Below, in pieces: positions 10,516 through 63,037 of a stretch of DNA of 64,000 bases. The position numbers and the translations under genes are program-made. Origin of the DNA: Rhizaria sp. SCN 62-66 (Eukaryota); assembly GCA_001724265.1 (NCBI GenBank), contig MEDY01000038.1, forward strand, positions 1-64,000. Reading direction: 5' to 3'. The notes under the pieces are model-generated. The model searched no databases and was not told the origin of the DNA. It saw only the letters and a list, made by a program, of their open reading frames with translations. The stretch's first letter is position 1, and every line of letters begins with the position of its first letter.

Positions 10516-11002
10516 ATGGACGGCGACAACTCTCCCCCCGTGTTGCGAGGTGTGGTTAAGTTCACGGGCGGCAAGGTGTTCCGCAACGGCAGCTTCGACG
10601 CGGACGACCTGTGGGTCGACACGGGGCTGCCGCTGGAGCCCGGGCAGCCGATGATGGCGCAGGCGACAGTGATCGACCCCAAGCCGCGCTTCTGGCAGGC
10701 CGGCCTCACCAAGGACTACGCGTCGCACCTCACCTTCGACGTCTCGGGGCTGCTCGTCGTGCCGGGCTTCATCGAGCTCCAGCTCAACGGCGCCTTCGGA
10801 GTCGACTTCAGCACGGTCCCACTCAACTAGCCGCTCTCGGCCGCCGCCGCCGCCGCGCTCGCCGCGCGCGCCGCCGCCGCGCCCGCCGCCGCGACGGCGC
10901 TGCCCGCATACAACACGTTCGACGCGGCCGCGCTCGAAGCCACGGCGGCCGCGGAGGCCGCCTCGCTGTCGCCCGAGGCGGCCGCGCAGGCGCAGGCCGA
11001 GG

Positions 11003-11034
<32 letters not shown>

Positions 11035-29488: not shown

Positions 29489-30457
29489 ATGCAGCTTACC
29501 CGCGTGCTTGCTCTGGTGTGCGCCGCTGTCGCGGTGATGGCCGCGCAGGCGCAGAACTTCGACCTTCAGTCGATGGAGGCGCAGCTCGCTGCCTACGAGG
29601 AGCAGGAGTCTCAGCTCGCTTCACTCGTCGAGGCCAGCGCCGAGATGGGTCTGGACGCCGAGTTCGAGACCGAGGCCGATGCCGAGCATGAGGTCGACGT
29701 TGACGCCGAGGCCGAGTACGACCTCGAGGCTGACAACGACGCCGACGCCGACAACGAGGCTGAGGGCGAGGCTGAGGGCGAGGCTGAGGCTGACGCCGAC
29801 GCTGAGGCCGACAACGAGGCCGAGGGCGAGCAGGACGCCGACGCCGAGGCTGAGGCTGAGGGTGAGGAGGCCTTCCTCGAGACCGAGGTTGACGCCGACG
29901 CCGAGATCGAGTCTGAGTACGACCTCGAGGCTGACCCCGCCCCCGCCGCCGACGCCGCTGCCCCCGCCGCGGACGCCAAGAAGGACGAGAAGGCTGCCGC
30001 TGCCCCCGCTGCTGATGCCAAGAAGGCCGATGCCAAGCCCGCCGCCGCCGATGCCAAGAAGGCCGATGCCAAGCCCGCCGCCGCCGATGCCAAGAAGGCC
30101 GATGCCAAGAAGCCCGAGGCTAAGAAGGCCGAGCCCAAGAAGGCCGATGCCAAGAAGGCCGATGCCAAGAAGCCCGCGGCCAAGAAGGAGGAGAAGAAGG
30201 ACGACAAGAAGGACGAGAAGAAGAAGGAGGAGGGCCCCTCCCCCGGCGAGGGCGACGACGGTGGCTGCACCAAGAAGTTTGACCTCCTCAAGCTCCTCAA
30301 GAACAACGGCAACTTCCTTGCCGGCAAGACCAACAAGAAGCTCGACGAGGCCGTCGCGGCCTGGGAGAAGACTGCTGCCGCTAAGCCCGCTGCCGCCGCT
30401 GCCAAGCCCGCTGCCGCCGCTGCCAAGCCCGCCGCCGCTGCTGCCAAGAAGTTCTAA
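29489..30457 (+). CDS. Secreted repeat protein with signal peptide, acidic E/D/A block and Lys/Ala-rich (AKKAD/AKPAA) block; TAA stop
   Basis: MQLTRVLALVCAAVAVMAAQA signal-like N-terminus; strong C/G-ending codon bias; intronless 322-aa ORF. Confidence 0.85.
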   Translation: MQLTRVLALVCAAVAVMAAQAQNFDLQSMEAQLAAYEEQESQLASLVEASAEMGLDAEFETEADAEHEVDVDAEAEYDLEADNDADADNEAEGEAEGEAEADADAEADNEAEGEQDADAEAEAEGEEAFLETEVDADAEIESEYDLEADPAPAADAAAPAADAKKDEKAAAAPAADAKKADAKPAAADAKKADAKPAAADAKKADAKKPEAKKAEPKKADAKKADAKKPAAKKEEKKDDKKDEKKKEEGPSPGEGDDGGCTKKFDLLKLLKNNGNFLAGKTNKKLDEAVAAWEKTAAAKPAAAAAKPAAAAAKPAAAAAKKF

Positions 30458-32420: not shown

Positions 32421-33977
32421 ATGTCCCTGCGCGTGAGCCTCTAGTCGCAGCTGCATGAGACGTCGCTGCTGATCCGCGAGCTGTGGCCCGCGCTGCACTC
32501 CACCGCCAACTCCGCGCAGACCACCAAAGTGCTTTCGGCGCTGCTTGTTGCCAACGCGGACCTGCAGGCCAGTCTGTCCCGGTTCACAACGCGCATCGCG
32601 CTCCACGCCCGCGCCGCGAGTCTGACCGCCGAGGCAGAGGAGAACACGCGCCGTCTGGGCCAGTTCTCGGAGAAGGCGCAGTTGCTCGACGAGCGCATTC
32701 ACACACTGTTGCGCCAGCACCCGCTTGCGCCGCCCATCGACGCGCCTGCCTTTAGGGCCTCGCCGTCGGACGCATCGGCGCTCGCAGCGTACGTCGTCCA
32801 AAATAACACATCCAACGGCAATGACAACAACAGTACCGCCAACGATCACGATGAGGTTGCGGAGGACGAGGACGGGCGCGCGCGGCGGCATGCCGTGAAG
32901 CGCGCGCGCCGTGCCGCCGCGATGTCTGCCCAGCCGGGCTCTCTGTCGTCGCTGTACCGCACGGAGGTCGCCCTAGGCTACTCGCCCTACTCCATCCCCC
33001 TTACCACCGCCGCGTCTAGCGCCACGACTTCGAGCGCAGGCACAACCGCGGCTAGCAGCGCGACGGCAGTGGCCTCGTCTGCCGCGGAGGCAGCCGCACG
33101 CGAGGAGGGCGTCGCAATGGAGCGATTGCGCGCGCTGGGCACGGAAGTAAACGTCGGCCAGCTGTTGCAGATGGCTGAGAGGCGCGCTAAACACCTGGCG
33201 CCGGTCGAGACTCCGCCCAGTACGCGCGTCGTCGTCACTGCTGCGGCACTGACGCAAGCAAAGCAACAGCGTGCGAGTGCGCACGACGGCGACAAGGCTC
33301 ATAAACACGCGAGCAACGACAACAACAACGTGTCTGCTGAGTCTGAGACCGCTGCTGCTGATGATGCTGCAGCTGCTGCTCAGACCGAGCCCGTGGCCGC
33401 GCGCGTTGAGTTTAAGCGCGCGGGCGCGTGGGGCGGCGGCGGCCCTGACCAGCAGCAGTGGCCGCTTTCGCTCGCCGCTCTGCTCCCCGTGCCAGCGGCG
33501 GAGACCTTCGCGGCCGCCAAGTGGAGCCCCGCCGACTGGCCACTCGCCAAACTCATCCAGATCCTCCGCGACCCGCACCACAACGAGCGCGGCTCCTTTG
33601 CGCTGCCGCAGAGCGGCGCGGGCGGGGGCGACTGGCGGGAGCAGCAGGAGCGCCGGCGCGCTGAGTGGCGCGCCAGCAGGGACGGTGTCGCTGGGGACGG
33701 ATCTCTTGGCCCCAGGTGATATGCGAGCAATTAATATATCTGTTTTTTTTTGTTGTCTTTATTTAGTCATACCGAATACAAAGCACTTGTTTAAATTTCA
33801 AACACGCTAAATTTCACGGAGATATACATGTTTGTGTGTTGCAGAAAGGCGTTTGTGGTGCCAATGAGTTCTGAAAAACTGCGCGCGTCACTCGCGCGCT
33901 CACAGTCACTTTGGCTGACCGACCTCCGGCGGACCGCGGCCACCGGCGAACACAACCGACCGCGAGACGAGTTGTGA
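32421..33977 (+). CDS. Mediator subunit MED4-like protein; exon 32421-33715 with in-frame TAG at codon 8 (32442-32444), probable last exon 33845-33977 (alternative end at TGA 33717-33719)
   Basis: N-terminal helical/coiled-coil MSLRVSL*SQLHETSLLIREL...VLSALLVANADLQASL, 'VNVGQLLQMAERRAKHLAP' and C-terminal 'PMSSEKLRASL' recall MED4 architecture; identity tentative. Confidence 0.5.
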
Positions 33978-40418: not shown

Positions 40419-42468
40419 ATGTCAACATCTACATCGCCTACACCGCGCCTCATCTCACGCACCGAGGTCGCCTCACACAACACCCCAACTAGCTGCTGGG
40501 TCATCCTCTTTGGTAAAGTGTTTAACTTGACGTCTTTTGCCGCGATTCACCCCGCCGGTGCTGCACTCATCCACGACCGCGCAGGCACGGACGTGAGCGC
40601 AGACTTCGCCCGCTTCCACGGCGCCGCCACGCTCGAAAAGTACGCCAAGACGCTCTGCATTGGTCACCTCGCACCGGACCCGGCTCCCACCGGCGCCGCG
40701 GGCGGGCTGTTTGCGGGCTCAAAGCCGCGCCGTAGCAGCGGCAGAGGCAGTGGTGGCAGCGGCGAGAGGGACACGCGTCTGATCCCCATGTCTGTGTCAC
40801 TGCCGTACACCGACCCGAACTACATGCAGGGCTGGGTGTCGCCGTACTACAACGACACGCACGTGCTCTTCCGTAAGCACATCCGCGCCTTCATGGACGA
40901 GCACATCGCGCCCTACTGCCGGCTCTGGGAGGAAGCAGGCGCCGTCCCGCGCGAGGTCATCATCAAGTGCGCCGAGCAGGGCCTGCTGCCGCTGGTCTGC
41001 GGGTTGCCATGGCCGGTGGACTACGTCAGCGACAAGATCGAGCGCGATGGCGTTGAGTACACGTCGGAGCAGCTGGACATGTTCCACGAGCTCATCATGA
41101 TCGACGAGTCTGCGCGCGTGGGCTCCGCAGGCGTCCTCTGGGCCATCTCCGGCGGACTCTCCATCGGGCTCCCGCCCGTCGTGCACTTCGGCAGCGAGGA
41201 GATGAAGCGCCGCGTGCTCAAGCCCTGTCTGACCGGTCAAAAAGGGATCTGTCTTGCCATCACTGAAGCAAGCGGCGGCAGCGACGTGGCGCATCTCGAG
41301 TGTCGGGCGGTCAAGTCCGACTGCGGGACCTATTACACCGTTAACGGGCACAAGAAGTGGATCACGGCCGGCACGACCGCGGACTACTTCACCACGGCCG
41401 TGCGCACGGGCGACGACGAGTCGGGCGCGCTGGGCGTCTCGCTGCTCCTCATCGAGCGGAGCTTTCCGGGTGTTAAGACAACCCCAGTCAAGGTTTGTCA
41501 CTTAAAGTGGGCGTCACAAAAAGTTTTGTTGTTTTTCAACCTGAAATCAAAATCACATTGTATTTTATGATACATGTAATGCCAATGAAATAATGATGAT
41601 GTGTCGATTCTGTAATGACATTGCAAATTGACATGATGTTCACACCACATGATATTTATCATCGATTGCTTTTCGCTTCAGTGCTCGGGCGTTCTCTCTA
41701 GCGGCACTGCGTACGTCACATTTGAAAACGTGCGCGTGCCGGCTGAGAATCTCATCGGTGAAGAGGGCATGGGGTTTCTCTATGTCGTCCGCAACTTCAA
41801 CCACGAGCGCTGGGCTATCACCGTGCAATCGCTCCGGTTTGCGCGCGTGTGCATCGAGGACGCGCTGCGCTGGGCACTCAAGCGGCGCACGTTTGGCAAG
41901 GAGCTGATTAAGCACGCCGTTATCCGCGCCAAGTTCGCGGATATGATCCGGCAGGTGGAGGCGACGCAGGCGTGGCTGGAGCAAGTGACGCACCAGCTCA
42001 ACACGTTGCCGTTCGAAAAGCAAGGCAAGCTGGCCGGCTCCATCGCGCTGCTTAAGGCGCACTCGTCGCGCGTGTTTGAGCTGTGCGCGCGTGAGGCGCA
42101 ACAGATTCTTGGTGGCGCGGGCTACACGCGCGGGGGACAGGTGCGTTTTTATCAATTCACAGCGATGTTTAGGAAAACGTAGTTTCAATTGGGATTTTAT
42201 TGGATCCATGTTATTGTATTATAACGGATGTGATCTATCTATGTACATGTATATATGGGGTTTGTATGCCAAGTCGCTAAAATATTACTCACACCCTTTG
42301 ACCGTAGTCCTTTCGTTGTGTTGTTTTTGCTGAACGTCACTCACACAGGGAGAACGCGTGGAGCGCCTGGCCCGGGACGTCCGTGCGTTTTGCGTGCCAG
42401 GAGGTAGCACCGAAATTATGGAAGATCTGGCTATTCGTCAGCTCGCAATGCGTGCCGCAAAGCTCTAA
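40419..42468 (+). CDS. Cytochrome b5-fused acyl-CoA dehydrogenase, probably peroxisomal; exons 40419-41492, 41682-42140, 42349-42468; TAA stop
   Basis: EVASHNT..SCWVI..HPAG (cyt b5), CLAITEASGGSD, VNGHKKWIT, NFNHER, QILGGAGYTRGG, PGGSTEIM; ends in -AKL (PTS1-like). Confidence 0.92.
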
Positions 42469-42980: not shown

Positions 42981-45314
42981 TCACCAATACGACGTGCCCA
43001 TTTTCACACTATAATCAAACGGCCTGGACACGAATTTGGCCAAACGACGGCACACTATTGCAACGTTACGACATGTCGCTATGTCTTTGAGCACATCAAA
43101 GGCCATCGGTGAAGTCACACGACATGAAAACTCTACCTCATTTTCAACTTCGTGTCCGCTCGTGACCAGCGTTGAACAGCCGAGAAAGCTGCGGGAGATG
43201 AACAGGTTTGCGTCTAGCACAACCATATTCTCATCACAACACTTGTCACGGGTACTGTTGCTACGTGCGGGCATGTCAATGTCAATGTCAACATCAATTT
43301 CACAGCTCGCGTCGCAGTTTAGAGAATCTTCGCAGATGGTTGCCGGAGATGTGATGATTATCTTGTTCTGATGCGTTAACATAAAGCCAGGAACAAGGCA
43401 ATCCAAGAGATGGAAGTGACTCATTGTCATATTATGAGTGATAGCCGCAAATCGCTTGGCATCAAAAACATGATCATATCCACCTACATTGCTTGAGTAT
43501 ACGTATTCTTTGTCACTGTTTGGGTTGTTGCTGAGCAGCTTCCACAGAAGCATACGTAAATGTCCACTCACCTTCGAGTAGTACTCACTTACTGCCGTTG
43601 CAAAGCAATCATGTTGAGACGGAACAATGCAGTCTTCAGGGTTGTAGCCTAGGTCTTTGATCATGATCGGCAGAGCCTCTTGAATCTCGTCCTCATTCCA
43701 CATGCTAGTGTAGCGAAAACCACAGCGACCAGTCTTGCCTTTTTGATAGACTCCTGCGTAGTTGTTAAGGTCGGGGGTTGATGCCATAACAAAGAAGGCA
43801 TGACCGTCATCTTGATAGCAGTGATTTTCCGGGCCGTTCTCTCCAGGATCATAGAGATAGAGAGTTGCATCCTCCCAAAGGAGGTTCTTAAACTCGGTTG
43901 AGCCTGCTTGAACAAACCTCGCGTTGCCGTCAGGGAGCAGCACAAGAGCAATGTCCTCCATACTGCAGTGGCAGAGAACCGTTACGCCGTCTTTTTTCGC
44001 CGCGAGTTGCACCAGATAGTTGAGCGCCGCCGTTTTCCCAGTGCCAGAGGGACCGCTCAGGATAGTTGCTATGCCATTTGACCGCGCCGATGAACACTCG
44101 CTAAACCGCGACATTACGTAGTCGTAGAGAGGAAGGTGTGAGCGCCGGATGATGAGCGTGTTCCAGTCAGCGTCTGTGCCCGTGAAGAACCAACGCGCAT
44201 CGTCAGGCACAGAAGTCACGAGCACGTGCGCCAGCACGGTCATCTTTACGTACATGTGCGCGTTGTCACTTTTGAGGTACTTCCACAGTTTTGCTTGGGC
44301 CATCAACTTTGGCATCATGTGTTCTTTGTCTAAAGCAATACTTTTGGCAATCCCGTGCGTTGCCCTGTCCCGTTTATACTCTGAGTAGGCAATTTGACGT
44401 TTCGCCTCGGCATGCCGAGCTTTGGCATTGTTGAGCTCAGTATCCGCATCCGACAGCCCAAGCTCAAACTTCTCGAGTAAAGCCTTCACTAGCCCCAGCC
44501 GATAGTCGTAGCCCGCGGTTTTAGCCAGTGATGCTCTCGGGTCACGCACAAGCTGAGCGTACCTCTGATCCGCGGATGCATCGTTTCGAATGTACTAGAG
44601 CCTCCTAATGTTGCGTTCAGCCTGCGCATGTTCGAGCCTGCTAAACGCCAAAGAGAATTTATGCCGCGTCATCCTGAACTTAGCAGCGGCTTTAATGAGT
44701 GCAATCGATACCGCAGCACGCCTAGTCCGAGCCGCAGTCAGCTGCTTTTCCGCACCATCAACTCCGTTGACGACAGCAGTTTTTGCATCAACTACGTCAC
44801 TCTTTGCATTTTGCAAGCTATCGTAATGCTTTGCGCGCATAAGCTTTGCGACAGCCATGTTGAAACAAGCCTCAGCTTGAATGTAGTCGGCCTTCATAAC
44901 TCGTGCGTCCTGAGAGTATCGGTCACTTTGCAAGCGGATAATGACGGCCTTCAATTTACGGAGAAGCTAGTCTTTGGCCGAGGCAACTAAGAGCCTAAGA
45001 CATTTCACATCTTTGGCCCTATTATTCCATTCACCGTCGCTGCTTTCATCGTCGTCGCTAAAGTAAGTGTCTTTGGTGCAGGTGTCGTCATCGTCACTGG
45101 ACAAAGATGTGAGGGTCTCCGTGTCATTGGGCTGCTGCTCAATATCATCATCTTCTTCTCCTTCTTCCCCTTCTTCGTTGTTGTTGTCGACGCTACTGTA
45201 TTGCGGACATGAGACTGCCAGATTGGAGAGCTTTGTTGTGGGCACAACATTAGTTGAAACACTTTCTGGAGTGCTGTTGCGGTGAGCTGCACGAGGACTC
45301 AGACGGAGAGCCAT
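42981..45314 (-). CDS. Crinkler/RHS-like P-loop NTPase with N-terminal acidic and coiled-coil regions, intronless, about 778 codons; two in-frame TAGs (44969-44967, 44597-44595); TGA stop
   Basis: Walker A 'ILSGPSGTGKT', 'LYLYDP', 'MASTPD' and 'WNEDEI' segments typical of CR-NTPases; three ORF-track ORFs in one frame joined only by TAGs. Confidence 0.65.
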
Positions 45315-46259
45315 CGTCTGCTGTGACGCAAATGAGATTGTTCCAAAGGGAGAATCAAAACAAAATTGAAAGTTGGCGCATAGACGTGAGAAAATGAGTG
45401 GGGGAAACAAGTTCAAGGACAGTGGGCGGCAACGCAGAATGAACTAAGATCACAAGCGGAGTGAGTTTTGCAAAGAGCCAATTGCGAATGTCGTTGATTC
45501 AAGAAACAGGGTAAAAGCATGAAGTAACTTTTCTTCATCGAAATCATCTTTTGTTATTGAACGCCATTTCGTAGTTTGGGGTTACTGGAGCACAAACGCA
45601 CGGGAGGGTACAACTGGGAGAGGCAACGCGTGGATTGCGAGCTAGATGAAATCAAACGTACATCATCTGTTTCTTGTTTGTTGTTTGCCCCGTGCTTGGA
45701 CAGCATAGCACACAAACTATAAAATAGAAAAAGCAGCATGGCAAGTCCGATGGGTCAATTTGTAAGCGTTATGAGGCCAACTAGATTGAGTGCTGGGAGG
45801 TGGTGCCAAGTCGACCCACGCGTGGCCACTTTGGAACGTCACAATGCAGGGGGGATACGCTTTGCACCAAAAAGAGAAATTGTAGACGAAATAACATGAT
45901 GTAATAAAGCAAACAACAAAGCCCCGCTTAAGTTTAAGGTTCTTGATTGTCCTGAAAGCACGACGAGTAAATCCACGGCCTTGGGGCTTATGGGTGAGTG
46001 ACTGTGAGCACCCATGACCATGGTGACTGTGAGCACAGCTGCTCACCGGCCAAGAGGGATGGTTGCAGTTAATAGGCATAGCTTCTTCAGTCATGATCAA
46101 AACACAAAGCTAACTTTATACTTTGCAAGATCTTATCTTCACTTTCACCCCCTTTTGCACAGCACCGCTCAAGTCTTCGTTCTGTTGGGATCTCACTTGA
46201 AGAACTGACCGCACATTCAGTCGGACGAAGCAGTCGCTGTGCCCGCATCCGCCGACTCG

Positions 46260-49200
46260 ATGCCACTGACTGAGATGCGCATGGCCAAGCTACGCCGCGA
46301 CTAGTAGACCCCTGAGCCCGTGATCTACGAGGCCGACAAGGGCGTCGAGCTTCCCTTGCATCGCGTGTGGCTTCTATGCTGTTTCATGGCTCTAGGCGGT
46401 TTTCAAGTTGGTCTCGTACGTTCTCTTGCTTTGTTCTCGCACTTCTGACTTTTTAGTCCCACGCGGCACAAACTTACAGAAAATAGTATGTACTCACACG
46501 TATGTAAGTCTATCCCTACATTGTTTTCCCCCACAACAGTCTCTAGGTTTGTTTAATGGCGTGCAGCTGAACAACAGTTTCCTGCGTGACTTTTGCATCA
46601 ACGATAGCGCTTACAACGGAGGCTACGGCTCACCTGCCGCTTGTGACGCCTCAGTCAAGCTTAGTGACCAGCCCTCCGCCTATGTTCTCTTTAAGTCCCT
46701 TGTTTCCGCGCTCCTCTCGATTGGCTGCGCGCTTGGCGCGATGATTCTGGCGCCCCCCGTAGCCGACAAGCTCGGCCGCTGCCGCACTATCTCACTCGGC
46801 GCCTTCATCTCCCTCGTCGGCCTTGCGTTTACAGTCTCCGCACACTCCCGCGCCGCGCTGCTGGCGGGCCGCGCCGTGGAGGGTTTTGGCCTGGGTGTCG
46901 TCGCCTTCGCGTGCCCCATCTACATCGCGGAGATCGCGCCCCCCGCGCACCGCGGCCGCATGGGCTCGCTCATGCAAATGGCCTGCGTGCTGGGCCTCGC
47001 CGTTGCGCTCGCGCTCTCTCTCACGCCGCTTGGCTGGCGGCTGGTGCTGGGCGCCACGGCCATCCCGGCGGTGCTGTTGCTGTGTGGGACGTGGCTCATC
47101 CCGGACTCGGCGCCGCTCGCACTGGCGCGGCACCAACGATGGGAAGCAGCGGCCACGCGCGCGGCCGCCGCCGAGGCGACCGTCGCGCTGGCCCAAGCTG
47201 CGGTGGATGCGGAGGCTAGCGCTGCAGCCGCGACGGCCGCAACAGTCGCCGCCGTCGCAACAGGAGAAGCATGGCAAGCAGGCGGTGTGAAGGGTCTTTC
47301 AACATCGACGGATGCCTTTGGTACTGGTGCTGACAACACTGCTGCTGCTGGCGTAGGCGGCATCAATTTCGGCGAGTGTGACCAGGCAGCAGTCGTTGAC
47401 CGGGCTCTAAGGCAGGCCGCTGGTGCAAGGCGGGACGCGGCAAAGGCTGCCGTCGCGCGCGCAAAGCAAGGACTTGAGCCTATACATCCAAACGTGGCAC
47501 AGCGCGTGCAACAACAACGTTAGCAACAGCAGCAGCAGCGCGGCTGCGTTGAGTGTCACAGGCTCGGTTTGCGCCAAGATCGCCATCGCATGGGTGACGG
47601 GCTACTCGACGAAGACGAGGAGCAAGGAGGCTTCGGCAGCAGCAGTAGCTCTAGCATTGGCATTAGCAGTGATGCGCACGCTACTCCACGCGCTGCCGGC
47701 ATGCACAGCACCGATCACAGTGATTTGCTGCGCACTCACAGTGCTCCGCGTGACATCACGAGCGCGAGCAGCGCCGTGTGCCACTGCGGAGGGCAGCCAG
47801 CCCACTATCACGCGAGTCAAGACAATGCTGCGATGAACAACGTGGATAACACTGGATCTACCGCTGCTGGGTTTTGCGCAGCCCACCATCACCTGGCTCA
47901 AAGCTACAGCGCGCTGCGTCCTCTCGCAAGCAATATCACTGACGCGCAGGACCGTATACGCTTTGCTGCCGCTCACGATCACGGACACTACCCCTGTTAG
48001 CCTGCAACGGCGGCCGCGTTTGCTAGAGAGGCCGCCGTGGCCAAGGCCGAGGCGGCAGCCACGGTGGCGGAGCCGGCGGACGAGGGCGCGGTGGCGAGGG
48101 CGACCATGTGGAGTGGGCTTGAGTTCGCGCCGTCGGCCCCGACAGAAGAGCAGTTGCGCGTGCTGACCGGAGAGGAAATCGGCGGGGTGTCGCCGTACTC
48201 GGAGCTGGAGTCCTAGCCGGAGTCGCAGTCGAACTCGGGCTCAACCTCGGAGACAGAGGCGACTGAGTCAGAGTCGGACAAAGAGAGTGGTTCCAGCAAG
48301 AAAAAGGTGCCGATGGCCACGGACGGGAAAGGGAACGGCAGCCGTGCAACCGTTGGAGATGCACATGCACCCGCTGTCACAGCAACTTCAGCTAAAGCGC
48401 CTGCAGCAACTGTTGCAAGGCCCGTAACGAGTGCTATCGTGCCCACAATCTCCGTGACGGCGCCTGCAGTCAGTAGTGCTGGCGCCCAGAGTCATTATGC
48501 GAGCAGTCACGAAGGCAAGTACGACGACATTGATGATGATGTGCAAAACAAGATGAAGAACAAGAGCGTTCTCTCTGGAGCACGTCCAACCGGCAGCGGG
48601 GGCGCTAACGCAAGTGTTCCCGGCAGCAGTCTCAGCACTCAGGGGTCCACTCTTAGTACGTATGCTGCGGAGGCCAGGGGGAAGAAGCAGCAACAACGAC
48701 AGCAGGATAAGACTGCTCATGATCACGCAGGCACAGACACTGTTACAACAACGACGACAGCGGAGCCCACAGCAGCAGACTTAACTCAGTCGTTGCCGCG
48801 AGCGTTCACGGTCGCAAAGCGCGACAACACAAGTGCAAACAACGCGGCCAGCACACAGATTGCAGCGTCCGCGGCTGGCCCATCTCCTAATGCAGACGCA
48901 GATAAATCCGCGAGGAAGCTTGTTTCAGATGCTGTTGCCACTACAGACACAGTTGATGCCAGCGCCTCCGTCACTGCTGGCATGGGTAGCGCCGCAGATG
49001 GCGCTGGCACTGGCACCGCAGATGGCGCTGTGCTGTCTATGACGAAAAGTGAGCCGCCGACTCTATGCGGTCCTACCCAGTCAGCCTCGTCGCCAGCAGC
49101 GTCAAGAACTCCGCCACCGCTGTCATCGTCGTCATCGTCGCTGACACCGGTACAAGCGGACCGTAACACGACTGGCACAAGCGCATACGCAGGTGCGCCC

Positions 49201-50608
49201 GTGTCAGCGGCTGCTCTCGCAGCGACCACTGCCGCAACGGCGTCCGCGCATGCGGACGCGGAAATCAACGCCACAAAGGGTGACGCAAGCGCAACTCCAG
49301 CGGACACTGTCACGGACACAGAAGTTGATGCGCACACAGCTGCAGACGCGAGCGGCGCGGCGACGAAGCGGAAGAGTAGGACGAAGTCAAAGCGCAAGAC
49401 TCCGCCGTTGCTGCTCCCGGTTGCGGCGCCACTGATTGCTGCAGCTCGCCGCAGCCGAAGTCATAGTCGCAGTCGCGACAAGAGCCATGATCACTCGCAC
49501 GGACACAGCCGCAACCATAGTCACAACGCCGCCGTCGCTGGTTCCGCTGCTGCCATCACAGACCGGCCCGGCTCCGGGACGCTGCTGCTGCAGATTCTGC
49601 GCTCAGAACCGCTGCGCCGGCGACTGATTGTTGCATGCTTCCTGCAGTGGCTGCAGCAGCTGACCGGCATCAATGCGTTTATGGCATATTCCGCGACGAT
49701 ATTCGAGGATGCAGGCGTGTCATCGTCTCTGCTTGCTGCGACAATTCTCATGATTCTAAACATCATCGGGACTATTGCAGGCATCTCGCTCATTGACCGT
49801 CTGGGCCGCAAAGTGCTGCTTTCGACCGGTTCTGTCGCGATGACGGTCGCCCTGGTCACGGCTGCGGCGATGCTCGTGGCTGCGGGCGGCAAGGGCGTCG
49901 CGGGCTCGGCAGGCGTCGCAGTCGTCGTCATGTGCTCGCTGTTTATCTTCGCGTTTGCGATTGGCTGGGGGTACGTTTGCCATACTTGATTGTAGCATCT
50001 TATGCGAAACATGTATCTTGACGAATCTACGCGACACCGAGGTCGCGTCATCACTAGTGTCACTAATTTTATGACTCGATTTGAACGCGGTGACTCACCA
50101 TCAAAGTTATATTATGCACTTGGATTGTTCATAAACTTATAAAACGCGTAGCCCCGTGCCGTGGGTAATCCCAAGCGAGATCTTCCCGCAGCGCTACCGC
50201 GCCGTGGGTGTGACGACTGCAATCGCGAACCAGTGGGTCGCGTCATGCGTCGTCATCTTCACGACGCCGCTGCTGATTGCCGCGCTCGGCATCGGCGCCG
50301 TGCTCTTCATCTACGCCGCGCTGTCGCTGCTCGGGCTCGCGTTCGTGCTGCTGCTGGTGCCAGAGACCAACGGCGTAGGCATCGACACGCCCGAGATGGA
50401 CGCGCTGTTCAACAAGAAGCGGCGGCTATACCACCAGAGCAGCGAGAGCAGCAAAGAGACGCCGCTGGCGCTGGCGTATAACGCGGGCGCGGAGAGCGAA
50501 GGCGAAGATGGGCAGGCGGAGTTGAGGGATCTGCGAAATGCAGAGATTGAGCTTGAGCTCGAGGATAAGGAGGCTGATGCGGCTGCGGCTGGCGTGCGAG
50601 CGCGATGA
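46260..50608 (+). CDS. MFS sugar porter (about 1347 aa) with a giant central loop; exons 46260-46415, 46540-49970, 50152-50608; five in-frame TAGs; TGA stop
   Basis: TM1 ALGGFQVGL/SLG, ADKLGR, PIYIAEIAPPAHRG, QQLTGINA, IDRLGRK, GWGPVPW, SEIFP and PETNG motifs. Confidence 0.92.
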
Positions 50609-51218
50609 TGGGATGAAGAATAGAATAGAACAAATGTCTAGGATTGCAACAACTTGAATATAAATACAAAAATACAAGTCATGATTATTGATAACAATTT
50701 TATTGCACAAAAAGTCTGTTGTACTTGAATAAGATACTGGTGATTGGTCCCACCACAAACGCTTCGGGCTGTGGTGGAACAGCCGCTGGAAGGTGCTCGA
50801 GATCGCTCGCGAATGTGGGCCAAGCGATGGCCAACTTGCTCGTCGGATATGCAGGCAAAAACATCTGTCACCGCGGGTTTAGCCAACGCTTAGGAACTGC
50901 ATTTGGGTTATTCTACCTTTTACTATTTGGATCTTGATTGAAACTGCGAATGTAATCTTCTAGACTAATATGATCGATGCTCGAGTGTCATGGTCCCATC
51001 ATTGATGACTCATCCCCTCTAAATCCACGCTCTACACGCCAAAACGTTGTTCACAAAATATCTGTCTTGCATATACGGTATTATTTCTTTAGTGCAGTCT
51101 ATCTCACGTAAAATAATTTATTCTGCTCTCATTCCTTGCTTTCTATTCAACTCGCACGCTTGCAGTTCAAAGCCAAAGTACACTCAACAAGACTACTACT
51201 ACCACATACTGTATCACG

Positions 51219-53779
51219 ATGGGACCGCCCCCGCGTCACTCCACCTTTCCATGGGGCTCGCTTCCGCGTCGTCTCCTCTTGTCTTGCGCGTTTTTCTTTG
51301 CGCTCTCACTCGTTTCGCTGACTTTCGCCCCCGAGACTACTACAGCGCTCGCCGCCCCCACCCGAGGCAACGCCAAGCCCAGCGCTGGCAGCGGCGGCCG
51401 CGGCGGCGGCAAGGCGGGCGCGAAGCCCGCGGCGGCGTCGAAGCCGAAGGACTACTACAAGATTCTGGGCGTGGGCAAGAACTTCAACGAGAAGCAGCTT
51501 AAGAAGGCCTACCGCAAGCTGTCCCTCAAATACCACCCCGACAAGAACCCGGATGACCCTGACGCGGCCGAGAAGTTCATCGAGGTCTCCAACGCCTACG
51601 AGGTGCTTTCGGACCCGCAGAAGCGCGCCGTGTACGACCAGTACGGCGAGGAGGGCCTCAAGCCCGGCGGCGGCGGCGGCGGCGGCCCCGGAGGCCAGGC
51701 TGCGCACGGCCAACCTGGCGGCGGCGCGGGAGGGTTCCACTTTAACTTCGGCGGCGGCGGCGGCGGTGGCAGCGGCGGCTTCCAGGACCCGTTCGACCTG
51801 TTTGCGCAGATGTTTGGCGGTGGTATGGGCGGCATGGGCGGCATGCGCGGCGGCAGGGCCGGCGCGCGCGCCGGCGCCGGTGGCCGTGCTGGCGGTACGT
51901 TTACTCTCACGATATCCTGTCTATCTCGTCACTTTTCCCCGTAAATTTTGATTATAAGGACTATTTGTTTTATTAATGCTATTATTGGCGTTGTTGTAAA
52001 GTATTGTCTCACGAAACATTTAATCTCATGGATATATCTTATCTTGTGTTTTCTCCCCATTCAGGCCAGCCCCAGCAGCAGCAGCAGGAGCAGAGCCTGT
52101 ACGCTGGCGCGCACCCGAACCTGTCCGAGCTGACTGCGCAGTCCTGGCCGCTGCCGTCGCCGGGCCACCCGCGCGAGGAGTCGCAGGCCGACAAGGACGC
52201 CATCTGGGTGGTGGAGTTTTACGCCCCCTGGTGCGGCCACTGCAAAAAGCTCGCGCCTGAGTTCAAACAGGCCGCCAAGGAGCTCAAGGGCATCGTCAAG
52301 TTCGCCGCCGTAAACTGCGCCAACGAAGAGGAGCTCTGCGGCCGCTTCGGCGTCACCGGCTACCCTGTTATCAAACTGTTCCCGTTTAACCGGCATGAGT
52401 CCCCCGAGGACTACAACGGTCGGCGCACCGGCGAGGCCATCGCCAAGTGGGCCACGGGCCACGTGCCTAACTACATCACGACGGTCCCGCTCGTCAACGC
52501 CCAGGCCAGCGCCGGCGTGCTGACGGCCAGCGCGGCCGCCAGCGAGGTGCTCGCCGCGGTGCGCGCGACGGCACTGCGCAAGCCTTTCCTCCCGCACGTC
52601 GTCTTCTTCCTGCAGCACGGCAAGAAGCCGCTCGTGTCGCCTGCGCTCATGGCCATCGCCAAGGGCATGCGCCAGCAGTACCGCTTCGTCGCCGTTGAGG
52701 CACCCGCGCCCGAGGCGTTTACCGCGCCCGAGCCCAAGGACGGCGATTCCGCTGCCGATTCCGGCGCTGGCGCTGGCGCTGGGTCTGAGCTGCCAGTGAG
52801 CAAGGAGGCCGCGGCGTGGATTGCCCTGGCGCGCGAGTACGGGCTCCTGACGGTGCACGCGCACGAGAGCCCCGCCGTCGTGGCCGCCGCGGCCGCCACC
52901 ATGGCCGCCGGTGCCGCGCGGCTGTCGGTCCGCGCCGGCGCCTCGGCCGACGCGCCCGGAACGATCACGCTGCCGCTGCCGATCAAGAGCGCGTTCAACG
53001 CCAAGACCGTCTCTGACTTCCTCAAGCGCTCGCACACGTCTCTCAAGTCCCAAGGGGCTTATAGCAGTGACTTCGCGGCCCAGGTGCTTGCGCCGCGCGC
53101 GACGGCCGTGAGCGAGGGCGACCGGGCGCAGGCCGTGCTGCAGTCGCAGACCCCCGGGTACCACCCCGTGTTCGTGCTCTGCGAGGACGCCGCCGCCGCG
53201 CTCAAGACGACACACGCAACCACGAGTTCCACCGCTGCGGGCGCCGCGGGAGCCAAGGCCAAGGCCGGGGCGGGCAAGCCTGCTTCTGCAAGCGCGAGTC
53301 CCGCGGCCGCGGCTGCTACAGCTGTGCACGACATCGCGGCGGCCTTCACCGAGATGCAGGTGAGCGCCGTCCCGGTCGGCAGCCCCGCGTTCGGCGCGCT
53401 GGTCGCCGTCGCCGACGCCGACCTGCGCGCGCACCTGGCCGCGCTGCAGGCCAAGTGCCAGGCGCAGCAGGCCGCGCAGGCCGCCGCCAGGACCAAGGGC
53501 CCGGCCGCCGTGGTCGTCGCGGTCAACGGCAAGCGGCGCCGGTTCGCCGCGCTGTCCGCGCTGAGCGACGAGGACGCGGGCGCGGAGGCCTGGGGCGCGG
53601 CGGACGAGACTGCGAGCGGAGCGGGCGCCCCCATCAGCTTCCCCTTGAGCACCGCGGAGTGGGTTGCCGGCCCAGCCAAGGGATTCCTGGAGGGACTCAG
53701 CGGCGGGGTTGTGCGCTCCAAGCCCTACAGCAAGGGCGCCGACAAGGCGCGGGCTGCGGAAGAGAAGGATGAGCTGTGA
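51219..53779 (+). CDS. ER-luminal DnaJ plus thioredoxin domain protein (ERdj3A/DNAJC10-16-like); exons 51219-51894 and 52065-53779; TGA stop
   Basis: Signal-like hydrophobic stretch, DYYKILGV...YHPDKN J-domain, G/F region, [11 protein letters not shown]-terminal KDEL. Confidence 0.92.
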
Positions 53780-54338
53780 GCTACAGCGCAGCAATAACAT
53801 ATTGATGTGAAATGCGGATTTACGTTAGTTTTTGTTTCTGTTTAATCTTGTGACGCTGTGTTCGAGTCTTGTTTCAACTTCTTTGTTTGGCGGTTTTCAA
53901 ATGCAAGATGCGCTCCGAGTAGATTTATAATACGGATGGCCTGTGTGCACTACAATAAAATATAGTATATTAAGTTGTCACTTTTATTAAGCAGATTATA
54001 CATGATAAAATGTCTGCTTTTATTGAAAAATAAGAGGCGAAGTGACTGTGAGCAATATGACTTTTTAGGAACCGTGGCTGGCGGCTGGTCTCTACTATGG
54101 GTTGGGGCTTCGTTGAGGTGTCAAAAGAGGGCAAATGTCACACCCGAACGCAGTTGTTTTGCTATGTAACAATTTTATATAGCATGTACACAGAGAATTT
54201 TATTCAAACTTGTTTTTACACTACGCAACTAAGCTGGACATGGCCCGCTAGCTGTGTCTGTGAACGACCTCTTCACTCTTCACACCCCACCTTGTCCTGT
54301 CTTGCTTCCTTGCTTTGCTCCACAGCCCAACCCGCCCG

Positions 54339-58303: not shown

Positions 58304-61300
58304 ATGTCACACCTGTACCCACCGGCGCGTCTGTCTGGCCCGCCTACATCTGCCGCGGCCCCAGGCACGACGTCTGCGTTCCCGGCGCCGTCACCGCGCT
58401 CCCCGCGGCCCGCCCGGCCCATGACCGCGGCTCCCCACGCCTTCGTGGTTACGCCGCGCCGCACGGCCAATCCCACTACTTCTGGATCTACCCCCGTGCG
58501 TGGGCCTGCCACAAGTGCTACAGACACCTTTGCGCCCGCCGGAGCTCCGTTCCCGGCTCAGCTTCGCGCCGCCCCAGTCCAGGACTGTCAGCCGCAACCG
58601 GCGCTGTACCACTCACACTCGCTGCCTGAGTCCCAGCCTCAGTCTCAGTTGCAGCAGCCGGAGCAGTGGCAGCCGCAGCCGCAGACCAAGTCGGAGTCGT
58701 ATTATTACAACAACAGCCGCCGCGGCCTCGCCCCCACGAGCAGCAGCGCGAATGCACACGCGAGCGAGAGTGCTGATAGTCGGCACAGCAGCGACTGGGG
58801 CTGGGGACGGCTGCCGCAGCGAACGCATCAACAGCATCAACAGCAACAGCAACAACAACAGCATGACTCCCAGTCAAGCGCACACGCACCGTCGCAGGTA
58901 CAGCAGCCGAAGGGGTCGCCCTCCCACCTCGACTACTACAAGTGGTCGAAGCCCGGGCAGCAGCAGCAGCTACAGCAGCAGCAGCAGCAGCAGCCGCGCC
59001 GTGCGTCACTTGATCAACAACAGCAACAACAGCAACTGCGGCCTCTTCGCTCGCAACATCTGCAGCAGCCGTCACAGCCTCCACCGCAGCCGGAGTCGCA
59101 GTCTCGGTGGCAGCTGGTAGCGGGCGGCCGCGGCAAGCCGTCGAGTCGCTTCGTTGATGAGGGCTCTCTCTCGAGTCGGTACTATCACCCAAACAGGTAC
59201 GACGGCAGCGGCCGCGGTGGCGGCGACGTGAGTCACAGCTACACCAACAGCAGCGGCAGGGGCAGCTCGAATTTGACTCGGCACACCGCCAGTGGCCAAG
59301 GACTGGCGCCACAGTCGTCAACGCAGCACCAGTCGCTCGTGCACTCGCAATCGCCCTCTCGGCTACAGACGCACCCACAAGCACAACCGCGGCCGCGGTC
59401 ACAACCGCAACAGCAGCAGCGGCTGCCGCAGCCGCCGTGCACGGGCATCGTGCCGTTTCCGTCTCCAACCGCGCCCGCCCCGGTTTTCCCCCACAGCTCA
59501 GTTTACAGCCCCGGCGACAGCGGCAACGCGCCCGCTGCAAACGCGCTCACGCCTAGCGTCGACTACAGCAGCGCCGCGCTCGCTGCCGCCCCCGCTGCCG
59601 GCGAGCAGCCCGTGGTGACCCCCGAGCTTGCGCTGCTGCTGGCCGCCCGCAAGCCCTCGCGCGCGCGCCTCCGCGTCCAGCTGCAGCGGCTGCGCAACAT
59701 GCTCTACGCCGAGGCCGCGTCCGTGCCGCAGGCCGCGGCGGCCGCGGCGGCGGCCCTGGCCCTGCTCGAGGCGGCGTGGGCGAAGGACGCGGTGCCGCTG
59801 CTGCGGGGAGGCGCGGCCGCGGAGCACGCTGCGCTGGTCACCAAGGCCCATGTGGCGAAGCAACAACAAGACAGTCGGCAGCAGTAGCCGCAAGAACTGC
59901 AGCTACAGCAACACGGGAGGCGCGGCGCCAGCGGCAGTAGCCTGGAGAGCTCTATGTACGACACTGACCGTGACGCCGACTCGAAGGACCTCGGTGGGCT
60001 AGCGGGCACCAGCGCCGGCGCAGTGAACGCAAGCACCGACGTCCCTGTGCCTGGGAGTGTGGCGGGCCGGTCGCTGACCGACGTGATGCGCAACAAAGTG
60101 GTCACCATCCCTCAGATGCAGAACGCTGACTCGTTCGCGCGGATCAACAACAGCTCAAGCACTGGCGGCAGCCCAGGCGCGACCACCAGTGACATCGTTG
60201 TCAAGGGCGAGGACAAGAATGCGCTGTCGTCGATTTTTTCGGCCCTGGACAGCACCGCGGCGCTGCAGCGCGCCGCCAGCATGCACTCGCGCCATCTGGC
60301 GCTCTCGCCCGCCGCCGCAGCGGCCGCGGCGGCCGCGGCGGGCGGCGCGGCGGTGGCCGCGCTCGAGGCGGCGCTCGTGCGCGCGCGCGTGACCGCGACG
60401 ACGGGCGCCTGGGGCAAGGCGCTGCGTGCGCTGCCCGCCGTCGCCGGCGCGCACGCGCAGTGGCTCCAGGCCGAGCGCGCGCGCTGCGAGGCCGAGGTCG
60501 CGGCGGCGAGGCAGCGCATGCTGGCGGCGCAGCAGAGGGCCAAGGGGTCGCTTGAGCTGGTTGCAAGGAAGGCGAAGACCAATGAAGCTATCTCAGCCGC
60601 TGATGAGGCAAATAAGAACCATAGCGTCTCTAATGCCAGCGATATTGTTTCATGTGACCGCGGCTCGAGCCGCAGCAGCAACGGCCGTCTCGGCTACGGC
60701 AACGCTGACCGGTTTGACCGGACCGTGCAGAGCGACCGTGAGCGCAGCGGGCTAGCCACGTTGCTGGCCGCCGACAGCGACCGGGAGCGCGGGGCCGCGG
60801 CGCGCGCCGACGCCGAGGCCGCGGCCGCGACGCTGCGCGCGTCGCTCGAGGGCTTCCGGGCGGCGCAGCGCGAGGCGGCGGCCGCGGCCGACCTCGAGAC
60901 GGGCTCCAAGTTCTTCAACATCAGCGACAACGACAACAAGCCTGCTCCTCAAACCGCGATGGGTGCCAACAAGATGTCGAAGTCGAATAAGGTCAACGCC
61001 AACGGTGCCGTCAAGCGCACCGTCGCGGCGGACGCTGCTGTGGATACAGTAACCGCCCTCGTCGACCGTCTCACTCAGCCCCGCCTCACACCGAGCGCAG
61101 ACAACTCTAAGTACTCCCTTACCGACCCGGCGTCTTACTTCGACGCCGCCTCGGCTCCCGACCCCGAGATGTGTCTGTTGCTGTCGCAGGTCATCGACCT
61201 GCAGGCGCGCCGCGCGCTGCGCCAGGCCCAACACCGTCGCGCGCGCCTCGCGCTGGCGCAGCACCGAGCTACCGCCGCGCTCGCCGCGCGCCGCAGGGGC

Positions 61301-63037
61301 GAGGCTGCCGTCCGCTCTATCCGCGCCGCCGCCGACGCAGAGGCGCTCGCGCAGCGCGCCGCGGCGGCGCGGGAGCGGCGCGAGGCGCTCGCGCTGGCGG
61401 CGGCGCAGGCCCGCGAGATGGTCGCGGCCTACGCGCGGCAGGGGCAGGCGATGCAGAGCCACATGCACCAGGCCTCGGCCGCCGTTAACGGCTGCGTTAC
61501 CAGCAGTGAACAGCTCGCTTCAGCTGACGCTAGCGCATTAGCGCTTACTCAGCAGCATCCGTCAGCGCTCGAGGCCGGCGCGCTGGGCGTGGCGGTACGC
61601 GCGCTCGAGTCGGAGCTGGCGGCCGCGGACGCCGCGGTGCGCGCGGCCCGGCTGCAGATCGCGGCCAAGCGGCGCGCGTTGCACCGCGGGAAGCTGCGCG
61701 CGTCTGCGCTGGCGCGGCGTGAGCGGGAGTATCAGACAGCGCTGCAACAGTGGGCGCGGTTCCGCGCGGTCACACTGGGCGGCGCCGAGCGCGCCACTGC
61801 GGCCGCAGCGGCGCGGCTGCGGCGCGCGCTGTGGGAAGGCACCGTGATCGAAGGCGAGATCCGGCGCGTGCGCGGGGAGGGCGCGGAGCTGGAACAGGTG
61901 TTGGCGCGCGCCGCGGCCGAGCTGGCGCGCGCTAGGGGCGAGCGCGAAGGGGCCGTGCAGGATCGGGTGGGGAAGCTGGTCGAGGGAATGATGGCGGCGG
62001 CCGAGAGGATGGGCGGGGAGCCGCTGCCGAGCTACACTGGCAGTGATGTCAGCAGCGTGAATGACAGCTGCACCGGCGGTGGCGATGATGAGGTCGAAGA
62101 GAACTATGACCAAGATGAGTTCGAAAACGACGACGGTGGCGATGATGATGACTATGAGGGCGACAGCTTCGTTGACCTTGACGCTGATGTGAACGAAGGG
62201 GACTATCTGGACGAAGACGAGGGCGATTTTGACTGCGAGGGTGACTGGGATGATTATACCTCCGATCAAGGCGATGCCATTGACAACACTGACAATAGCG
62301 ATGACATTAACGACGTGAATCAAGTTGACGCTGATGCGGACGGCTACGATGACGATGCGCTTGAGGACGGCGCGTTGACCCCGCACACCAAGCTGGCCGC
62401 GTCTTATCACCCCCACACTTTTTCTCGGAACAGTAACAACGCCGCCCTTAGCGCTGCAACTGCAACGGGCGGCCTCGATGCCGACTGCTCTCTGCTGGCT
62501 GCCGTGCCGCCCCCGTTGCCCGGCACGGCCGGCGCGCCCTCCCCGTTCGCAGCCCGCCGTAGCGCGTCCAACACAGCGAGCACTGCGAGTGTTTACAGCC
62601 AGTCAGCCCAGAGTCATAACAGCGACGGCTCGTACAAGAGTGACCAGGAGCAACAACAACAACATCAGCAGCAAAGCAACGGTGCAGATGAGAGCGTGGA
62701 CGTCAGCGTTGAGGTCAGTGTTGATGCAAGCGGCGACAACGCCAACGCAAATACCCACCATCACGGCAACCCGTTGCTACAGCCTAGCATCAACATTGGC
62801 GCTGATATCGACGCCGGCGACGCCGAGTTCGAGTCCGACGCCGGCTCTGCGCGCCGCTCGCTGCTGCTGTCTCCACTGCACGCGCCGCCGCTGTCGCAGC
62901 AGCACTTGTACAACGACGGCGTCAACAACACGCTCGATAGCGCGGTGGGGCTGCTGGTTCTCGGAGCTGACAGCGGCCGGGGCAGTGGCAGCGAGGTCGG
63001 AGACAACGCGCGCAACCCGCTCGTGTTCAATTTCTAA
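58304..63037 (+). CDS. Large hypothetical protein (Gln-rich N-terminus, Ala/Arg coiled coils, acidic C-terminus), about 1577 aa; one in-frame TAG (59885-59887); TAA stop
   Basis: ORFs 58304-59887 and 59954-63037 share a frame with a stop-free, GC-rich linker; no family recognised. Confidence 0.7.

Follow-up and report, generated by a model that had tools for sequence, protein, structure and literature searches.

The 64,000-nucleotide stretch of contig MEDY01000038.1 from Rhizaria sp. SCN 62-66 that was analyzed here (the window) is nuclear eukaryotic DNA with a guanine-cytosine (GC) content of about 60% and about 21 genes. One of these genes, on the forward strand at 46260-50608, encodes a predicted sugar porter and contains five in-frame TAG codons. 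This raises the question whether the gene is broken, whether the TAGs are bypassed, or whether UAG is a sense codon in this genome, and if so, which amino acid it specifies. The results indicate that UAG is very probably a sense codon genome-wide, while UAA and UGA still serve as stops. The more specific reading, a nuclear reassignment of UAG to most likely glutamine (Gln) with UAA and UGA remaining as stops, is probable.

The sugar-porter gene and its five TAG codons

The gene has three exons, which after splicing comprise 1347 codons, and ends with TGA. The spliced frame contains no internal TAA or TGA. TAGs are found at positions 46302, 46305, 47521, 47998 and 48214, i.e., at residues 15, 16, 380, 539 and 611 of the spliced 1347-residue product. 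The initial annotation had placed five TAGs in one sugar porter, and their positions and frame were as it had described. Its first exon and its phase 0 intron at 46416-46539 were also correct, and a second intron was found at 49971-50151. The span that it had given, 46260-48216, was right at the start, but 48216 is only the end of the last TAG, and the gene continues to 50608.

The profile used for the comparison with known transporters was built from 115 sugar porters, i.e., those of 400-660 residues among the proteins P0009-P0154. Residues 35-52, encoded by exon 1, match the first transmembrane helix (TM1) in this profile, and the next in-frame ATG after the tandem TAG falls within TM1. The GTACGT donor of intron 1 has the form shared by most introns in the window, and joining across intron 2 brings back a conserved stretch from TM10 to TM11. 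Pfam Sugar_tr (PF00083) matches both halves, with E values of 7e-62 for exon 2 and 9e-17 for exon 3, and with scores of 210 and 61.5 bits versus a gathering cut-off of 22.3. The profile aligns with residues 35-280 and 1067-1295 without a frameshift and with ungapped motifs, and the product reached 440 bits, compared to a median of 494 bits for the 115 training proteins. Thus, the earlier claim that both transmembrane halves are intact held. Hydropathy analysis revealed six plus five segments, and both halves align fully. An AlphaFold model of exon 2, which was made without an alignment, had a mean predicted local distance difference test value of 37.8 and was set aside. Judged from the sequence, a single 12-helix chain would depend on UAG being decoded. 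In TM1 a serine is present at the position where the profile has an aspartate; a serine in place of this aspartate is the mark of a uniporter, which suggests that the protein may be a uniporter.

The two aligned halves are about 790 residues apart. The loop region 47104-49560 (819 codons) has no in-frame TAA or TGA, and the other five frames have 11-28 each. After dinucleotide shuffling of the loop (n = 1000) the mean number of TAA and TGA codons was 13.5 and the minimum was five, and thus zero was reached in none of the 1000 cases. The gene is already present in databases as the stop-delimited fragments P0005, P0006 and P0061.

The initial annotation had considered that the loop might be spliced out, and splice signals able to excise the loop TAGs were not found in the sequence. 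The modelled introns of the window (n = 21) have lengths of 124-222 nt, a median GC content of 39%, and mostly start with GTACG. In the 300 nt that precede each loop TAG, no donor scored above 1.5, whereas the donors of the gene's two introns scored 6.5 and 5.4; three of 19 real donors scored 1.3 or less. Stronger donor-like sites in the loop, at 48519, 48656 and 49193, all lie downstream of every TAG, and every 100-nt segment of exon 2 has a GC content of at least 46%. As acceptors the five TAGs scored between -3.5 and -10.1, which ruled them out in this role.

Contigs of four sequencing runs were compared across 44300-54000. Between 0.88 and 1.00 of the stretch's words were present in four runs from three studies (bioreactor, wastewater or unlabelled); the run X1 is possibly the one from which the sequence derives. 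The contigs of X3, from another study, contain all five porter TAGs as well as both TAGs of a neighboring P-loop NTPase gene, with no differences. The contigs of X4, from a third study, span all five porter TAGs; they had no differences over 44300-46800 and two over 47205-48925, the one listed being at 48677. An assembly error as the source of the TAGs was therefore rejected, because contigs of independent studies have identical TAGs. The same strain was seen in bioreactor, wastewater and activated-sludge runs from several studies. The samples hold near-identical strains, and thus their agreement is no proof of the age of the TAGs. Cluster look-ups revealed no strain variant that reads through a TAG. 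X5 is probably DNA. The listed contigs of X9, a polyA run, cover 44300-44359, 46692-46850, 48177-48469 and 50626-50806 as well as portions of the gene that follows, and the X9 contig that reads TAG at 48214 may itself derive from DNA. A short imperfect direct repeat lies upstream of the sugar porter at 45997-46036. Many other X4 and X9 contigs align with it, with small indels, and it may be dispersed in the genome of this or another organism.

TAG codons and gene ends across the window

In total, 11 in-frame TAGs were detected in six of the about 21 genes, which have 13,701 exon codons together. Six of these TAGs lie outside the sugar porter, in five genes (Table 1). TAA and TGA are completely absent from the interior of the 13,701 codons. 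In contrast, the 21 gene ends consist of 11 TAA, 10 TGA and no TAG. The probability of finding no TAG by chance is 0.009 if TAG had a share of 20% and 0.033 at 15%; the sample is small, and a TAG usage of up to about 13% would still be compatible with it. The TAGs in five further genes and their absence from gene ends make a genome-wide reassignment likely.

The best example outside the sugar porter is NagA, whose match to P0002 (43% over 399 columns, E 8e-94) reaches the codon before the TAG and resumes after it. The TAG at 10828 scored -0.5 as a splice acceptor, in the low range of real acceptors, and was ruled out as acceptor by this homology. The TAG at 32442 also scored -0.5, inside the same range.

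The distribution of the TAGs is uneven. Five are found in the sugar porter (GC of 0.64 at fourfold sites), two in the P-loop NTPase gene (0.52), and one each in genes with values of 0.77, 0.79, 0.82 and 0.91, the last one being NagA. None was found in the 14 other genes counted, including those for EF-Tu, tryptophanyl-tRNA synthetase (TrpRS), sortilin and acyl-CoA dehydrogenase. TAG is thus concentrated in weakly biased genes, away from conserved parts. If it encodes Gln, UAG represents about 2% of all Gln codons (11/589).

Table 1. Features of the sugar-porter gene and in-frame TAG codons of the window.
Feature	Position	Strand	Remarks
Exon 1 (N-tail, larger part of TM1)	46260-46415	+	Start is the first ATG past an in-frame TGA near 46206
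Tandem TAG-TAG, residues 15-16	46302-46307	+	Acceptor scores -5.3 and -10.1; upstream donors all poor
Intron 1, phase 0, GT..AG, 124 nt	46416-46539	+	GTACGT donor, score 6.5; sequence-predicted
Exon 2 (TM1-TM6, low-complexity loop of about 800 residues, TM7-TM10)	46540-49970	+	Single frame, interrupted by TAG only; Pfam Sugar_tr, MFS_1
TAG, residue 380, within a CAA/CAG run	47521-47523	+	X3 and X5 contigs without difference; X4 also spans
TAG, residue 539	47998-48000	+	Covered by X3, X4 and X5 contigs
TAG, residue 611	48214-48216	+	X3, X4 and X5 contigs and a contig of the polyA run X9, no differences
Intron 2, 181 nt	49971-50151	+	GTACGT donor; acceptor score poor (-5.2)
Exon 3 (end of TM10 to TM12, C-tail, TGA)	50152-50608	+	Pfam Sugar_tr, E 9e-17
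TAG in NagA (N-acetylglucosamine-6-phosphate deacetylase) gene 10516-13017	10828-10830	+	Homologous to JGI protein P0002 on both sides
TAG in ZW10-like gene 20198-25993 (1931 codons)	24683-24685	-	Open codons: 443 upstream, 1494 downstream
TAG at codon 8 of the 432-codon gene 32421-33719	32442-32444	+	Coding-like segment crosses the TAG; next ATG 159 codons later
TAG in P-loop NTPase gene 42981-45314 (777 codons)	44595-44597	-	Best frame on both sides; X3 and X4 span, no differences
Second TAG in P-loop NTPase gene 42981-45314	44967-44969	-	Best frame on both sides; X3 and X4 span, no differences
TAG in Gln-rich stretch of the 1577-codon gene 58304-63037	59885-59887	+	Open codons: 580 upstream, 1049 downstream

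The tally of 11 TAGs has a weakness, as it was obtained with a segment finder that lets TAG pass while it penalizes TAA and TGA. Because the finder favored TAG, three blind tests were run that treat the three stops alike. In the strict test 1/299 TAG, 0/418 TGA and 0/164 TAA passed, the single stop triplet being the TAG in NagA. With 60-codon flanks, the second test passed 2/117 TAG, 0/363 TGA and 0/48 TAA; with 40 codons it passed 3/186 TAG (one antisense), 1/563 TGA (a gene end) and 0/113 TAA. The third test was noisy at 60 codons (12/117 TAG, 8/363 TGA, 4/48 TAA); the values were 6/48, 3/185 and 0/11 at 100 codons, and 6/20 (one of them an intron TAG), 0/80 and 0/4 at 150 codons. The TAG at 59885 passed two symmetric tests. 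The blind tests speak for a sense reading, but they overlook several genuine TAGs and let some false ones through. Eleven random nonsense changes would yield nothing but TAG with a probability of about 0.0016, which also favors a sense reading but is partly circular due to the TAG-favoring finder. Other results weigh against it. Of the six genes, the sugar porter and NagA alone have homologous sequence on either side of a TAG, and the non-self relatives of the sugar porter match at 28-41%, the best two-half matches at 34-41%. Among the contigs listed, no X9 contig had an intron-spanning joint and none was spliced RNA. A tRNA scan detected no tRNA gene in the 64-kb window, and eRF1 is not among the window's genes.

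The base that follows the TAGs differs from that at gene ends. It is C in seven, T in three, A in one and G in none of the internal cases, while true stops are followed by G in 14/21 and by a purine in 16/21 cases (Fisher P 0.0004 and 0.0005). Compared to the bases after Gln codons, 27% of which are G, the lack of G after TAG has a P value of about 0.03. This +4 pattern was noticed post hoc. The available part of PMC4615788 describes C and U at +4 as the weakest termination contexts. As internal TAGs mostly stand before C or U, where termination is weakest, eRF1 may still compete at UAG, which the +4 bias weakly suggests. The reassignment might then be part-way, i.e., a tRNA(CUA) would read UAG and eRF1 would terminate at UAG-purine, an ambiguous intermediate governed by the +4 base in a GC-rich, probably cercozoan lineage. 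This is an intriguing but doubtful possibility. If true, UAG would be purged from gene ends, be kept rare, and occur internally almost only before C or U. As a separate observation, nine of the 11 TAA ends are followed by G, mostly as TAAGC.

Taken together, several lines of evidence support the full reassignment that the initial annotation had proposed for UAG: the TAGs in five more genes, the absence of TAG from 21 gene ends, the lack of splice signals that could excise the TAGs, and the identical TAGs in independent assemblies. The word "full" may overstate the case, as the +4 bias hints at partial reading as a stop.

The amino acid specified by UAG and alternative explanations

Glutamine is favored as the meaning of UAG, which is likely but not proven. 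A leave-one-exon-out model of the neighboring residues at the 11 sites yielded scores of 9.7 for Gln, 3.0 for leucine (Leu), 1.2 for Trp, -1.8 for Ser and -2.0 for glutamate (Glu). When 2000 random sets of 11 sites were drawn, true Leu codons reached the Gln-Leu margin in 0.15% and true Glu codons reached the Gln-Glu margin in 0.05% of the cases. Poly-Gln contexts surround two of the 11 TAGs, compared to 25% of CAG, 30% of CAA, 3% of CGG, 2% of CTG and 1% of GAG codons. This comparison served as a control for mutational proximity; CGG is likewise one transition away from CAG. The resulting likelihood ratios for Gln are about 7, 12 and 50 at the strict threshold. The log-likelihood of the +4 bases was also best for Gln (-13.5), followed by Leu (-15.4) and Glu (-18.7).

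The assignment has its weak sides. None of the 11 TAGs lies in a conserved column, and therefore the identity of the residue rests on neighbor statistics. At the gapped position of the NagA TAG, P0002 has an alanine. Gln owes its score to the sites 47521 and 59885; the other nine sites sum to about -3.5 for Gln and to +3.0 for Leu. This two-site pattern is expected from a mixture of poly-Gln and isolated Gln residues, and equally from Leu plus two CAG-to-TAG changes. The poly-Gln ratio drops to about 1-4 with a looser threshold or in comparison with the rare codons CAT, CTA and CGA, the counts of which are small. In addition, when C mutates to T within a run of CAG codons, TAG results whatever it encodes. 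The initial annotation had singled out the TAG at 47521 as the best clue for Gln. Gln also comes out ahead in the present analysis, but more weakly than had been implied, because there are only two poly-Gln contexts and the other nine sites are no better for Gln than for Leu.

Any other sense meaning of UAG is unlikely, although all evidence for a sense reading applies to it equally, because the neighbor model and the poly-Gln contexts favor Gln about 7-12-fold over Leu and about 50-fold over Glu at the strict threshold. Leu is ahead at the nine sites outside poly-Gln, and if both codons of the tandem TAG were read as Leu, the N-tail would contain a putative di-leucine sorting motif. The TrpRS tree described below points to Cercozoa, and the only known rhizarian case, exLh, has Leu, according to the available part of PMC5304391. 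In that case 384 UAG codons were found in 71 genes, versus 11 in about 21 genes here, with none in a conserved domain, and Leu is regarded as improbable. For Glu, the TAG at 48214 is in phase with GAG codons, but G follows 48% of Glu codons and none of the 11 TAGs. A nuclear code with UAG for Glu and UAA still as a stop was not found in the literature searched, and as a novelty it is less likely than the ambiguous intermediate. Glu is thus very unlikely, and the same is true for Ser, Trp, Tyr or any other residue taken together.

If the standard code applied, six genes could have been broken recently, with TAG dominating because CAG, GAG, AAG and TCG abound. TAG would then be the expected nonsense product in 38-79% of the cases per gene, and five TAGs in the sugar porter alone would have a probability of about 0.045. 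The relaxed codon bias of the TAG genes would also fit, and TAGs shared by near-identical strains are no sign of age. However, the six genes have no frameshift, TAA or TGA, the transporter halves and introns are all intact, and six of about 21 genes would have to be dead, including NagA in spite of its high GC content at fourfold sites. The lack of TAG ends and the avoidance of conserved parts would also be left unexplained, and decay of these genes is highly improbable. Bypass of UAG under the standard code, by readthrough at UAG-C/U, U-to-C editing, excision of the TAGs by splicing, or division into two half-transporter genes, is highly improbable as well. The pyrimidine at +4 in 10 of the 11 cases is a context that favors readthrough (PMC4615788, available part), but little product would be expected after five serial events. 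Weak splice sites do occur, as the low scores of three real donors indicate, but the donors upstream of the loop TAGs are far weaker than the gene's own, the GC content of exon 2 does not fall to the intron median, and between the TAGs codon periodicity is kept without TAA or TGA. The TAG at 48214 in the contig of the polyA run also speaks against a bypass, with the caveat that this contig may be DNA. An open reading frame of 590 codons after 48214 could supply the C-terminal half alone, but a separate N-terminal half would still need the tandem TAG to be read or would lose part of TM1.

The mechanism proposed for a sense reading as Gln is as follows. A duplicated tRNA-Gln(CUG) would have been changed by one base to the anticodon CUA, which would pair with UAG and not with UAA, and eRF1 would have lost most of its UAG recognition, by analogy to Iotanema and Tetrahymena. 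The tRNA-Gln duplication to CUA has its precedent in these two organisms, and a reading of UAG apart from UAA is possible only through an anticodon CUA, which is one base away from that of tRNA-Gln(CUG) or tRNA-Leu(CAA), and with an altered eRF1 (both PMC5304391, available part). UAG would be a rare, non-optimal synonym of CAG and CAA. It would arise by C-to-T changes, persist mostly in flexible regions and in genes with weak codon bias, and be missing from strongly biased genes. The sugar porter would be one 12-helix transporter of 1347 residues with a disordered, presumably cytoplasmic loop of about 800 residues that holds three of the TAGs. In a weaker step of this scheme, internal UAG would shun a following purine because eRF1 competes there.

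The host, its other genes and known genetic codes

The window encodes a mitochondrial EF-Tu, ribosomal L37 and L51/S25-family proteins and a zf-CHCC protein, which is presumably NDUFS6-like. These mitochondrial genes point to an aerobic mitochondrion. TrpRS was used for the placement of the host. Among the best 120 of 2567 matches the nearest were environmental sequences with 84%, 75%, 71%, 71% and 68%, and the named ones were all at 66% or less. A quick tree with 91 rows, i.e., the window and 90 of 119 matches after 28 grass rows and one short row had been dropped, placed the window in a seven-row clade (support 99) within a 21-row clade (92), of which Paulinella micropora was the sole named member. 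In a careful tree of 35 rows, picked after the quick tree, the window and Paulinella were on one side of a 96/92 split, and amoebozoan, plant, red algal, cryptophyte, haptophyte, centrohelid, hemimastigote, stramenopile and alveolate rows were on the other side. The placement is based on one gene with one named anchor, and on rows without opisthokonts, excavates or apusomonads. The host, an uncultured wastewater protist, is reasonably likely to be a cercozoan with no named close relative. Sainouroid sequences were not among the named TrpRS matches listed or looked up. A plasmid search with EF-Tu returned bacterial matches only (73-75%), and TrpRS scans of viral sequences (11 distant loci) and genomes (28 loci) revealed no relative. 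Two loci, L031 and L039, were considered as relatives and rejected, as they belong to other eukaryotes (52-57% to P0167). They are eukaryote-type TrpRS genes in two pieces each (L031:1847-3230 and L039:10001-11240) in the bacterial metagenome-assembled genomes UBA3031 and M30B20. The pieces are split by a masked stretch in L031 and by an intron-like gap in L039, and eukaryotic contamination of both assemblies is likely.

Further features of the window's genes were noted. The amidohydrolase domain of NagA contains about 200 inserted residues. This insertion is common to P0002, has conserved motifs and is missing from P0003 and P0004; it is a possible clade marker. Extended insertions of low complexity are a typical trait of this genome and also occur in mucolipin and NagA. 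The single-exon gene at 20198-25993 (-) encodes an Ala-rich protein, and its sole family hint is a C-terminal ZW10_C2 match with an E of 0.012, under the cut-off. For the product of 32421-33719, a resemblance to Med4 found no support in Pfam or the PDB. The P-loop NTPase gene at 42981-45314 is intron-less, has a lower GC content, hardly any codon bias (GC of 0.52 at fourfold sites) and a weak nSTAND_NTPase5 match, and none of five viral contigs contained a relative. It is possibly a recent arrival or a member of a fast-evolving family, yet it already has two TAGs. The gene at 40419-42468 (+) encodes an acyl-CoA dehydrogenase fused to an N-terminal cytochrome b5 domain, and that at 51219-53779 (+) a protein with DnaJ and thioredoxin domains and a C-terminal KDEL, which we take to be ERdj5-like. 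Last, a protein of 322 residues is encoded at 29489-30457 (+); it has a signal-peptide-like start, acidic Glu/Asp/Ala repeats and Lys/Pro/Ala repeats, and no Pfam match.

The meanings of UAA and UAG nearly always shift together, and a change of UAG alone is rare and has to date been reported for few protist lineages. Most known stop-to-sense nuclear codes are found in AT-rich genomes; the GC content of 60% excludes AT pressure as the driver here. UAG is so rare and so restricted to regions outside of conserved parts that screens with conserved markers would miss such a code, and codes of this kind may be undercounted. The strain recurs in runs of several studies, and thus its isolation may be feasible and the competition between tRNA and eRF1 testable.

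Several UAG-only nuclear codes are described in the available text of PMC11687900. UAG encodes Leu in exLh and some phyllopharyngean ciliates, Gln in Iotanema, two phyllopharyngean lineages and Protocruzia tuzeti, and Ser in Scotinosphaera; exLh, Iotanema, Scotinosphaera and a few ciliate lineages are the nuclear exceptions given there. The same text cites Oligohymenophorea sp. PL0344, with UAG for Glu and UAA for Lys. Single-stop reassignments are also described for giant-virus genomes, with activated sludge among the sources (PMC13524828, available part), and genetic codes go unmentioned in the available part of PMC12021597. Apart from exLh, the literature searched, which was mostly open-access and without supplements, contained no cercozoan or wastewater protist for which a UAG-only code had been described. 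A metagenome scan with NagA gave one relative among 105 pattern matches, the organism's own 3.7-kb contig L001.

As a member of the sugar porter family (PF00083, major facilitator superfamily), the transporter has two six-helix halves with ungapped motifs and a predicted role in transport. Unlike other sugar porters, it has about 790 residues between its halves. Apart from the gene's own fragments, none of the 150 listed matches from a search of 1.84 billion representatives aligned with the loop. The longer matches consist of at least four matched stretches each, and the two longest ones examined are tandem fusions; in a search for long-loop sugar porters of 629-2002 residues, none of 8000 candidates scored.

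The code most resembles that of Iotanema spirale, in which UAG encodes Gln and UAA and UGA are stops (PMC5304391, available part) and in which eRF1 carries a GTS change (PMC9161772, available part). Here, too, UAG is found within genes, UAA and UGA are the sole stops seen, and Gln is the likeliest meaning. Judged by gene content and structure, the host is neither a fornicate nor a ciliate, as it has mitochondrial ribosomal and complex I genes, introns of 124-222 nt and a GC content of about 60%, and its TrpRS groups with Paulinella. In contrast to Iotanema, Gln at conserved columns is not part of the support. With exLh, a rhizarian of the Sainouroidea whose gene set was probed with conserved proteins (PMC5304391, available part), the host shares the UAG-only reassignment and probably the supergroup Rhizaria. 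exLh is insect-associated and uses UAG frequently, whereas UAG here is rare, lies outside of conserved parts and is more compatible with Gln than with Leu. As in PL0344 and Scotinosphaera, UAG is uncoupled from UAA. In PL0344, however, UAA is reassigned too, whereas it is a common stop here (11/21), and neither the Ser of Scotinosphaera nor the Glu of PL0344 is favored by the neighbor model, in which both have negative scores. Taken together, this looks like a further independent origin of UAG-only reassignment, and it is probably the second one in Rhizaria, with another amino acid than the first. The type of code is known from Iotanema and some ciliates, and the lineage in which it is found here seems to be new.

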